DNA of 16,488 nucleotides from a virus (lineage: Duplodnaviria; Heunggongvirae; Uroviricota; Caudoviricetes), in IMG/VR virus record IMGVR_UViG_2778261569_000010, positions 1 to 16,488 of that record; one strand, written 5' to 3'. Shown in pieces: positions 3,001 through 6,000 of the stretch. How positions within the stretch are numbered: position 1 is the stretch's first letter; each line of letters opens with the position of its first letter. The position numbers were made by a program.

Positions 3001-6000
3001 ATCTTCAATGTGGATGGGTGAAATGCAGTGGGCGATACCTTGCTTTGGTCTTGTAACCTCTTTGTCACTACTGGAGAAGTCTGGGGTTTCTTTTGAATTT
3101 CCAAGTCTTGTAAAAATTGGAGCAATGTCATTCTCAATATATCTAATACACCCAATAATTATCGAATTATTAAGCCAAAAATATTTTGTTGTTTTTTGGC
3201 AGGATGGATTTACTAAGTTCTCAGTCATCATTTTGATTACAGTTTTTGCGGCAAGAATAATGTATGAAACAATTGAGATTCCATCACAAAAACTAGCCAG
3301 AAAGCTCATATCAAAAATAAGATGAAAAACTGCGATACCATTAAATTTGTGGTATCGCAGGTCGCCTAGCCATCATACCAAGCATTGTTAAGAAACTGTG
3401 TAACTCTATTTCTTGATAGTTCAAATAGCTGAGTGCCATTTTGAACTCCAGACAGATCAAACCTGGTATTTTTGGTTAACATATCCCATCCCGTGGCAGC
3501 TGGTGATACATATATTTTGGTTGTAGCATTATAAATTATGTTGCCACGGAGACTAATGTCTGAAATAGAACCTGAACCGGCTACTTCCAGTGAAATTCCT
3601 TTGTTGGATGCTGGACATAAAATAGTGTTGCCAGAAGCAATAAAACCAGTCATGGAACCCGACGTTAGCATGTCTATACCATCTGAAAGGGTAGAAGCGT
3701 TATTATTAGTGACCTTCACGCTTGACGTGTTTCCAGCGTCACCAGACTTGATGAAATTGGTTGTGTTGCTTGACCGGTTGTAGTCAACATTAAGCCCTGC
3801 TATTGTTGACGCTCTCAGGAAATAACTATCATTAGAACTATTGCCAGAGAATACATTTTCAGAAATATAAACATCTTCAGACATGGCTACATCTGCAAAT
3901 GACTTACACGTCCCTTTTGCCCTGTTGCGGTTTATTTTGATGTGTTTACTACCACTACCATCATATGTCTTGATGAATAATGGGATTACAACAGCACCGC
4001 CAATCAGGTTGTTATCCGTAACTTCAATCTCATCCGCATGGTTTCCTATATGAAATGCTTCTGTTCCATACTGTCCTGCAGACAATGTGTTTTTATACAC
4101 TTTGCCATATGAGGTATTAGCATGAGTATCTATACCAAAGGTTTGACCAACACCAGATCCTTGAGTGAAGTATCGTGCAGCAAATCCGATAATATTGTTA
4201 TTGTATATCTTGAAATTTGAAGCAGTGTAACCTTCGTCAGGCTCAATATCTATACCAGCTAATAGCGTATCACCTATGTAGTTTCCATGAATCTCAAACT
4301 GCCTAGTATCACTTCCAGCTGCAATAGCCATCCTATTGGTTGTAATGATGGTGTTATACCTTACCTTGAAATTTTTCGCGTTATAAACCAGGATGCCATC
4401 CCCACGCTGTATCCCTACACCTCCAATATTTTTGATATTACAATTTTGAATTAACAGCCCATCCGTCTGTACATCGTAGTTTGCATAATCACCGAACCAT
4501 ATTCCTATGCCGCACTCACCGGATAGCGTTGAAATTCCAATATCGTGAACATTCACGCCGTCTATAACGATATTGCTGCCACCGTACCCACGAATTCCTC
4601 CATCCAGGGTGCCTGTTATATCAACATCAATCACTTTGGCGTTGGAGATGTTAGCCATAAGTATCCCGGATTTCTCTTGCTGAGTTCCGCCATCAAATTG
4701 AAAGTTTAATGACCCGCTATGCATCACTTTATTACTTTTGTGGTTAATAGGTGAGCGAAGTTTTGAAACGAATCCGACGCCACCAAGTTTAACGCTAGGA
4801 GATTCAGAGTCTAATGCAGCGGATACAGCAGCATCGTTGAACTCTCCATCAATAGCACCCCATCCGCGAATGTCACCCTCTTCTCTCCACTGCTGAATTT
4901 TAATATGCTGATCCATCGATGGGATTAGAAGATATCCATTTGGACCCGCTAGCTCTTGTCTTAATTGGTCAGGGTCATACTTCAGCACATTAGGAAAATA
5001 GAACTGCTGGGAACCATACGCATCATAAACAGCCATAGAATGGCCTTGTACAGTTACGAATTTGGCAATCTGTCCGTTATATACAGGATAACCAGCAGCG
5101 TTAATGATGATTGGTTGCGATACAGGAACGTGAGAGCCGTCTTCATTCTCTACATAAACCTGAATCTGGTTTTCAGGATTTACCGGGTCAGTGTCAATTT
5201 TACCGATATAAATTTTGCCATTGGCTACGGCTTTAAAAGAACGAGCCATAGTGAAGAGTTGCGAAGGCATGCTCACTACAACATTGGCATTTATTGAATC
5301 TGTCATTTTAATTTGCTCCAGATACAAGGAATCGCCGCAGCATGGCTACGGTGAATTTTGGGCATAAAAAACCCAGCCGAAGCTGGGTCGTTGCGTTGGT
5401 TATCTGTCAGTAGTTATGTACTGAAGGAGGTAATTCTTTATTCTTAAGTCTCATCCATGCGGAAAGATTCGTTGGTCCGTCTGGCTCATTAATATCAACA
5501 TCTCGTGTGTGGTTTATTAAAACGTCTCTCGCCATCCCGATAACATACGAAAACTCATGACCGTAGTCGTAGCATCTGCCGGAATAGTTAGATTGAATTT
5601 GTTTTAATGCCGGATACAGTTCGCGGAATAATGCCTGTGAGCGGTTGGCATAATCCCATAACCATACAAGGCTGTTTGCTTCTTTTGCAGAAAGCTCGTT
5701 GGTTTTCCTCTCTTGTTTACCGATGAACTCACCTTCAAGCACTACCCTGTGGATGTACTCTACAGCTTGCGGTATCTGAGATGCATCAAGCTCTTCAATA
5801 CTTTCCACATTGAAACGCTGATGAATCATTGCATAAGCTTCTGGGTACATTAGATGCTTTTTGCTGACTAGCATATTTACAGCATCACGAAGTGGAGTCC
5901 TGTCATCAACAGATGTTTTCTTACGTGCATTTTCTGCCTTTCCCTTTGTCCAGTAGTCATGCAGCACAGTAAAGCATTCTTCCTGGTACTGAATCAGTTT

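Follow-up and report, generated by a model that had tools for sequence, protein, structure and literature searches.

The window analysed here, 16,488 nucleotides in all, holds the right end of a P22-like prophage, at which a tailspike gene and an acyltransferase gene converge. Bases 1–6400 match the chromosome of E. coli O111:H8 strain 8234 at 99.2%, bases 1–5354 that of O111:H- strain 11128 at 99.5%, and bases 374–5352 that of strain 110512, again at 99.5%; matches such as these assign the window to a chromosome of E. coli O111, of STEC type. By its gene content and its end the prophage is a P22-like (Lederbergvirus) element integrated in sbcB. Genes of P22 type for ejection proteins, needle, gp4/gp10, capsid and portal are found in the matching genomes; the layout of strain 11128 puts the integrase at the opposite end of the prophage. 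The tailspike gene is found where it belongs in such an element: it closes the P22-type virion module, behind ant/arc/mnt and the ejection genes, with ant (P22_AR_N/C in Pfam) directly upstream and the conversion module and att beside it. Copies of IS1203 occur at both ends of the window, and one of them interrupts the prophage at 15930. An ORF at 1864–2166 on the plus strand has no Pfam or PHROG match. The features that concern us, in order of position, are these:

1771..1820, plus strand: displaced 5' stub of the host sbcB gene (MMNDGKQQSTFLFHDY) together with att core TTTCACGATTACG, marking the right prophage end; identified by translation and by alignment to sbcB as reconstituted for strain 11128.
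2194..4965, no strand assigned: cassette of acyltransferase and receptor-binding domain, exchanged as a whole when compared with phage E212 by blastn.
2258..3325, plus strand: acyltransferase-3 (AT3) gene, 355 aa, intact in the window and convergent with the tailspike gene (PF01757, PHROG 3333).
2409..2416, plus strand: T8 tract in the acyltransferase gene; T7 at this place is a frameshift in 13 complete O111 genomes, 11128 and 110512 among them.
2535..2541, plus strand: T7 tract in the acyltransferase gene, frameshifted by T8 in strain 8234, by T6 in E2863 and by a 1-nt deletion at its edge in HCM-22C-2.
3330..3360, minus strand: hairpin of 11–12 bp resembling an intrinsic terminator, where the tailspike and acyltransferase genes converge.
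3366..5327, minus strand: tailspike ORF, with its start ATG at 5306, 9 bases downstream of GGAG; 646 residues.
3366..4964, minus strand: O111-type receptor-binding domain (RBD), predicted right-handed parallel beta-helix, residues 115–646 and stop.
4122..4604, minus strand: beta-helix rungs with invariant residues, the inferred catalytic groove, residues 235–395, from alignments of homologues.
4827..4964, minus strand: neck and N-cap, residues 115–160, motif LRQEL...RGWGA, common to unrelated tailspikes.
4965..5306, minus strand: head-binding (particle-attachment) domain of P22 type, residues 1–114 (Pfam PF09008, PDB matches).

The tailspike is a protein of two parts, and they meet exactly where a preliminary description of this DNA had divided them, at the hinge KYDPDQ (residues 109–114). 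That the first part is a P22-type head-binding domain is borne out on every count: PF09008 (Head_binding) in Pfam spans residues 4–114 with an E-value of 3.3e-65, P22 gp9 is 76% identical over residues 5–114, phage E212 is 97% identical over residues 1–119, and the PDB matches are the N-terminal domains of Sf6 gp14 and P22 gp9. To the corresponding domains of P22 gp9, Sf6 gp14 and HK620 the identities run from 76 to 95%, with the same hinge, and it is through residues 1–114 that the tailspike trimer docks on the P22-type tail. The second part, the RBD, is, according to the predicted model (of the monomer only), folded as a right-handed parallel beta-helix, and PF13229 (Beta_helix) is found on residues 213–374. 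P22, Sf6 and HK620 share this overall plan, a trimeric beta-helix O-antigen tailspike whose gene comes last in the late operon, but their receptor families differ from the one in the window. Alignments to them by phmmer and BLASTP stop at residues 118–145, and Foldseek comparison of the receptor domains returns about 11% identity and TM-scores of 0.3–0.49, so the beta-helix and its lack of kinship with the P22 and Sf6 receptor domains were both correctly called from the outset. When all chains of the PDB were searched by sequence, relatives were found for residues 1–119 only and, beyond them, just a generic N-cap motif; the profile of the RBD family found nothing in the PDB past the head-binding domain and that same motif. 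Having both the head-binding domain and the C-terminal beta-helix, the protein belongs with the P22-like (Lederbergvirus) tailspikes, of which a homotrimer with endoglycosidase action on the host O-antigen is an expected trait, and one that we predict here by analogy.

Between the stops of the two convergent genes lies the hairpin at 3330..3360. UUUUU directly follows its stem on the tailspike strand, its fold energies are –20.3 and –17.3 kcal/mol (z-scores –4.6 and –3.3), and none of 200 shuffles is as stable; it looks like the intrinsic terminator of the tailspike gene. Phage Sf6 shares the layout: tailspike (gene 14), terminator, and a convergent acetylase gene, oac.

Compared by BLASTP with six related tailspikes, the window protein gives two patterns of match, one confined to the N-terminal part and the other covering the remainder from L115. 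The first is given by P22-like phages, with matches reaching residue 119 in E212, 145 in Sf6, 159 in 683R2 and 183 in CUS-3; the second by the myovirus tailspikes STP55 TSP4 and ECGD1, which match from L115 (LRQEL against LRSDL) to the C-terminus. The two patterns exchange places at the hinge, and a modular exchange there, as the preliminary description had proposed, accounts for both. Immediately beyond the hinge, within residues 115–160, the neck motif LRxxL...IQxWRxxGD[IV]RGWGA is present also in STP55 TSP4 (from its residue 484), ECGD1, the CUS-3 endosialidase tailspike and 683R2, and this stretch is the probable recombination joint. On this reading the receptor module came in by recombination, at the hinge and the neck motif behind it (KYDPDQ followed by LRQEL...RGWGA). 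At the nucleotide level the exchange is larger than the domain. Against E212, blastn matches only two parts of the window, 1790–2193 (93.1%) and 4966–5578 (93.6%); only the flanks being held in common, the block between them, 2194–4965, has evidently been exchanged as a unit, and one of its edges falls exactly at the hinge. Base composition was considered as a marker of the breakpoint and rejected. The receptor part had been thought the more AT-rich of the two, but GC and GC3 are 0.410 and 0.353 for 3366–4964 against 0.415 and 0.377 for 4965–5306, and no step appears at the hinge; values so nearly equal on both sides mean that composition does not mark the junction. The distal half of the RBD, 3366–4349, is slightly lower in GC, at 0.394.

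The same RBD, at 83–91% identity, is borne on several anchors. Lederbergviruses have PF09008 and the Justusliebigvirus ECGD1 has Tail_spike_N (PF18668); homologue P0036 joins a T7-tail-fibre N-terminus to Tail_spike_N; TSP4 of the Kuttervirus STP55, 1011 aa long, has an anchor of 483 residues; and the 915-aa homologue P0037 begins with 380 residues without domain assignment. The family is a small one to judge from sequence searches, and no annotated relative clarifies its function: HMMER, run exhaustively against 1.84 billion representative proteins, found just 38 clusters at E <1e-3, and the nearest clusters outside the family are 31–35% identical. In our reading the same receptor module circulates among podoviruses and myoviruses with O111 or O35 hosts. 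It is a textbook exchange of receptor domains at the P22 hinge, one that spans phage families as well as E. coli and Salmonella.

What the RBD recognizes had been put down as unknown, and high identity over the full length to a characterised tailspike had been named as what would refute the description. The specificity is in fact known, and a tailspike of that sort exists. The tailspike WP_136721029.1 of E. coli O111:H- strain 110512 is identical at 642 of 646 residues; of the four differences only one, G554D, falls in the RBD, which thus agrees at 531 of 532 residues (99.8%). It is the same gene at the same site, beside dacD in a prophage in sbcB, with the same convergent acyltransferase. The window differs from 110512 in the first ten residues of the tailspike (an extra S4, N6T and V10I), where it matches E212, and in the acyltransferase, which is intact in the window and frameshifted in 110512. 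The protein is also matched end to end by phrog_19784 of the PHROGs collection. Pas et al. (2023, PMC10408124) grouped 110512_Prophage_RBP, ECGD1_RBP and STP55_RBP4 as an O111 RBP subtype, defined by at least 30% amino-acid identity over the RBD to the representatives, and the window RBD, like these from a prophage or phage of an O111 host, is 99.8% identical to the 110512 protein, 91% to the ECGD1 RBP (AMM43477.1; BLASTP over the domain) and, from the LR(Q/S)(E/D)L motif to the C-terminus, 82% to STP55 TSP4 (UPU15645.1). STP55 and ECGD1 differ from the prophage in being lytic myoviruses with unrelated N-terminal anchors and no adjoining acyltransferase. In 2025, residues 113–645 of WP_136721029.1, which correspond to residues 114–646 of the window tailspike, were fused as RBD-O111 to the Pseudomonas R2 tailocin, and the resulting R2-O111 killed O111 strain 10-1120 by 4.0 logs at 3.1 ug/mL (PMC11762384). 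In the same year the C-terminus of STP55 TSP4 was found to let phage CBA120 plaque on E. coli O111 (PMC12737597). Taken with its near-identity to these proteins, the window RBD is one that recognizes the O111 O-antigen, and it is an object already catalogued and put to functional use. An O111 tailspike has practical value, but it holds no conceptual novelty.

Genome comparisons point the same way. Among 5426 complete E. coli genomes, DNA for the RBD turned up in 22 and O111 wzy in 59, and not one of the 22 RBD carriers lacks that wzy. Nineteen of the copies are near-identical (at least 99.9%) and lie in the sbcB-site prophage of O111 STEC; because these 19 genomes all come from a single O111 STEC clone and share the integration site, the 22 amount to some four independent co-occurrences. 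The other three, in strains 8E, EPSSH018 and HCM-22C-2, are divergent alleles (94.6, 94.1 and 85.2% identity) outside the sbcB prophage, and in 8E and HCM-22C-2 the RBD gene lies beside tRNA-Arg/intS. Phage ECO111 5-P, which infects E. coli O111, has an 89% identical counterpart, and Salmonella has protein homologues at 84–90% identity, including one from serovar Adelaide, which we take to be of serogroup O35. Wang and Reeves are said to have found in 2000 that the O35 O-antigen is the same as that of O111.

The gene that faces the tailspike gene is lower in GC, 0.324. PF01757 matches its product at residues 7–333 (Pfam, E 1.9e-28), and PHROG 3333, annotated 'O-acetyltransferase', matches it too (E 1e-100). 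An AT3 membrane domain, in a prophage conversion module, next to a tailspike gene, is the hallmark of the AT3 O-antigen acetylases, and the protein is a putative O-antigen O-acetyltransferase of the lysogenic-conversion module. If linked to the tailspike in function, it would O-acetylate the same O-antigen, to the effect of lysogenic conversion or superinfection exclusion. The preliminary description had presumed such a link between the two genes, and the link is plausible. Relative to E212 the acyltransferase and RBD were replaced together; in Salmonella prophages an acyltransferase 97% identical accompanies the RBD, at the same position in the one compared, and the pair is found in serovar Adelaide too; and in a clade about 81% identical, from Citrobacter and S. 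diarizonae, genes for gtr-type glucosyltransferases take the acyltransferase's place. Neighbours of these kinds support the view that conversion module and tailspike address the same polysaccharide. The acyltransferase gene is broken, however, in 17 of the 21 complete O111 genomes in which it occurs.

Intact copies are those of the window, of four complete O111 genomes and of the Salmonella prophage compared (L011). The inactive ones were reached by various routes: the poly-T tracts at 2409..2416 and 2535..2541 account for most, and strain 8E has a GGA-to-TGA nonsense codon together with a deletion. The inactivations amount to at least five independent events, with homopolymer errors in some assemblies a possibility. 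Reversible phase variation at the poly-T tracts was considered, and rejected as the sole explanation on account of the nonsense codon of 8E and the clonal distribution of T7 at 2409–2416 in 13 genomes; recurrent pseudogenisation fits better. Since the gene is a pseudogene in most O111 genomes, it is not needed for maintenance of the prophage. A search of the literature for O-acetylation of the O111 antigen found none. That O111 STEC have lost the acyltransferase repeatedly could have consequences for O111 serology and for susceptibility to phages and tailocins.

Decay of this kind invites the thought that the tailspike gene, too, is a functionless relic of a failing prophage, uninformative about the present biology of its host. 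Besides the frequent loss of the adjoining acyltransferase, the prophage of strain 11128 has suffered several insertions of IS1203, one of them inside the scaffold gene, and in the window IS1203 has broken the prophage as well. We consider this possible though unlikely. The tailspike ORF is itself intact, and its DNA is 99.9% identical across 19 genomes; the domain that it encodes works when expressed, as the R2-O111 tailocin attests; and decay of the prophage, however far advanced, leaves the identity of the protein unchanged.

How the RBD acts once it has found its antigen is a matter of resemblance and of conserved residues. Down to 23–35% identity, D235, E264, R301, D303, R325, D353, E355 and D393 are invariant among homologues, and H395 is nearly so; these charged residues sit at rung-like spacing. 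We infer that residues 235–395 may form the active-site groove. The conserved carboxylates D303, D353, E355 and D393 would line it as the likely active site, and two or three of them would hydrolyse the O111 backbone in the manner of other O-antigen tailspikes. By analogy with those, the RBD most probably acts as an endoglycosidase that cleaves the colitose-branched O111 polysaccharide. It might instead be an adhesin, a domain that binds the O111 O-antigen and possesses no depolymerase activity. A search of the literature found targeting of O111 by the domain, in the form of tailocin killing and phage plaques, and no report of O-antigen cleavage; a search for a colitose-specific tailspike enzyme returned nothing relevant. 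We regard an adhesin as improbable, all the same. To our knowledge, all the P22-like tailspikes for O-antigen examined to date are enzymes. E264, R301-G-D303, R325, D353-x-E355 and D393-x-H395, invariant to 23% identity, occur on successive rungs, as charged residues do in catalytic grooves, and the tailocin equipped with this RBD killed smooth O111 cells efficiently, when passage through long O-chains would normally call for cleavage.

Still less probable is a polysaccharide lyase or epimerase-type enzyme, or an enzyme directed at an acidic capsule or at colanic acid instead of the O-antigen: the O111 O-antigen unit consists of Glc, Gal, GlcNAc and colitose, and a lyase is unlikely because there is no uronic acid in it for beta-elimination; the family profile found no significant lyase or epimerase in the PDB (AlgG at E 2.5), and no significant similarity with catalytic motif to the beta-helix lyases and C5-epimerases (AlgE4, AlgG, PL6, K5 lyase) was seen; the strict link to O111 wzy and the published O111 retargeting favour O-antigen; and in strain 11128 the colanic-acid cluster is broken by IS elements.

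We are therefore left, with considerable confidence, with the tailspike of a P22-like prophage in sbcB that docks by residues 1–114, recognizes the O111 O-antigen by a swapped beta-helix and most probably cleaves it, and is linked to an AT3 protein that most probably O-acetylates the same antigen. A bolder proposal can be made, and we offer it tentatively, as an idea that may well prove wrong. The RBD might represent a family of beta-helix enzymes that depolymerise O-antigen, as yet uncharacterised enzymatically and without a relative of solved structure; the family would bear the signature E264, R301-G-D303, N-R325-M, D353-x-E355, D393-x-H395 and would cut the colitose-branched O111/O35 polysaccharide. 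Together with the acyltransferase it would then constitute a co-transferred cassette of attack plus immunity, the immunity half of which O111 lysogens have repeatedly discarded.

Phage CUS-3 provides a precedent for such a pairing. Its tailspike combines a head-binding domain of P22 type with a neck motif similar to that of the window protein, 73% identical to about residue 183, and with neuO it displays the same association of a swapped receptor module with a prophage O-acetyltransferase for the same polymer. The receptor module of CUS-3 differs, being an endosialidase against the K1 capsule. NeuO differs, too: it belongs to another acetyltransferase family and is switched by a heptanucleotide repeat, whereas the window gene encodes an AT3 membrane protein whose relatives have been inactivated at poly-T tracts and by nonsense mutation.

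Relative to the P22-like phage E212, the tailspike receptor-binding domain and the adjoining acyltransferase have been swapped jointly, as one cassette. Both differ from E212 across positions 2194-4965 of the window, and homology resumes at 93% on either side, in 1790-2193 and again in 4966-5578. A second recombination edge lies at the extreme 5' end of the tailspike gene, because residues 1-10 (5277-5306) match E212 and not the O111 reference prophages (MTDIITNVVI-type), and because the DNA identity between the window and O111 strain 110512 stops at 5352. Farther upstream of the tailspike, in 5353-6400, the ant region differs.

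Elsewhere, the receptor domain has been kept and the conversion module exchanged. In a clade of tailspikes about 81% identical, GtrA, GtrB and Glucos_trans_II genes follow the tailspike in place of the acyltransferase. The three loci concerned (L012, L013 and L014) come from Citrobacter portucalensis metagenome contigs and from S. enterica subsp. diarizonae.

The conversion gene and the sites within it at which other O111 genomes carry frameshifts are:

2258-3325, + strand, AT3 acyltransferase, adjoining the tailspike; reading frame intact in the window
2409-2416 and 2535-2541, + strand, poly-T tracts inside the acyltransferase

Among complete O111 genomes that have this gene, only four of 21 keep it in frame. 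The lesions at the two tracts in the other O111 genomes comprise T8>T7, T7>T8, T7>T6 and a 1-nt deletion, and the copy in strain 8E has a nonsense codon plus a deletion. At least five independent events have knocked out the acyltransferase in these genomes.

The prophage is inserted in sbcB. What remains of the native gene at the right end is a 16-codon stub, MMNDGKQQSTFLFHDY (1771-1820), and at the left end the phage supplies a new sbcB 5' end, beginning MTDTDKQPTFLFHDY (555-635 of L016, a locus from the strain 11128 chromosome); the att core is TTTCACGATTACG. Some 370 bases (1821-2193), 93% conserved with E212, separate the att site from the acyltransferase and contain a small reading frame without a match in Pfam or PHROG:

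1864-2166, + strand, ORF of 100 codons

On the strain 11128 chromosome, no more than about 20 kb separates the O111 O-antigen gene cluster (gnd to galF) from the prophage's integrase end (L015 and L016; NC_013364.1, 2.617-2.693 Mb). The O111-specific tailspike and its conversion cassette are thus in chromosomal linkage with the genes responsible for the tailspike's receptor.

In the O111 reference prophages of strains 8234 and 11128, the needle gene is separated from the gp10-like gene by a gene with a NUMOD4 domain, similar to a homing endonuclease (25115-25758 of comparison locus L002). This insert is missing from the window, where the corresponding interval, 13704-13799, holds 96 bases only. 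The window begins and ends in insertion sequences, the second of which breaks the virion module of the prophage at 15930:

1-373, IS1203 copy, 100% identical to copies in O111 genomes
15930-16488, IS1203 copy, likewise 100% identical to copies in O111 genomes
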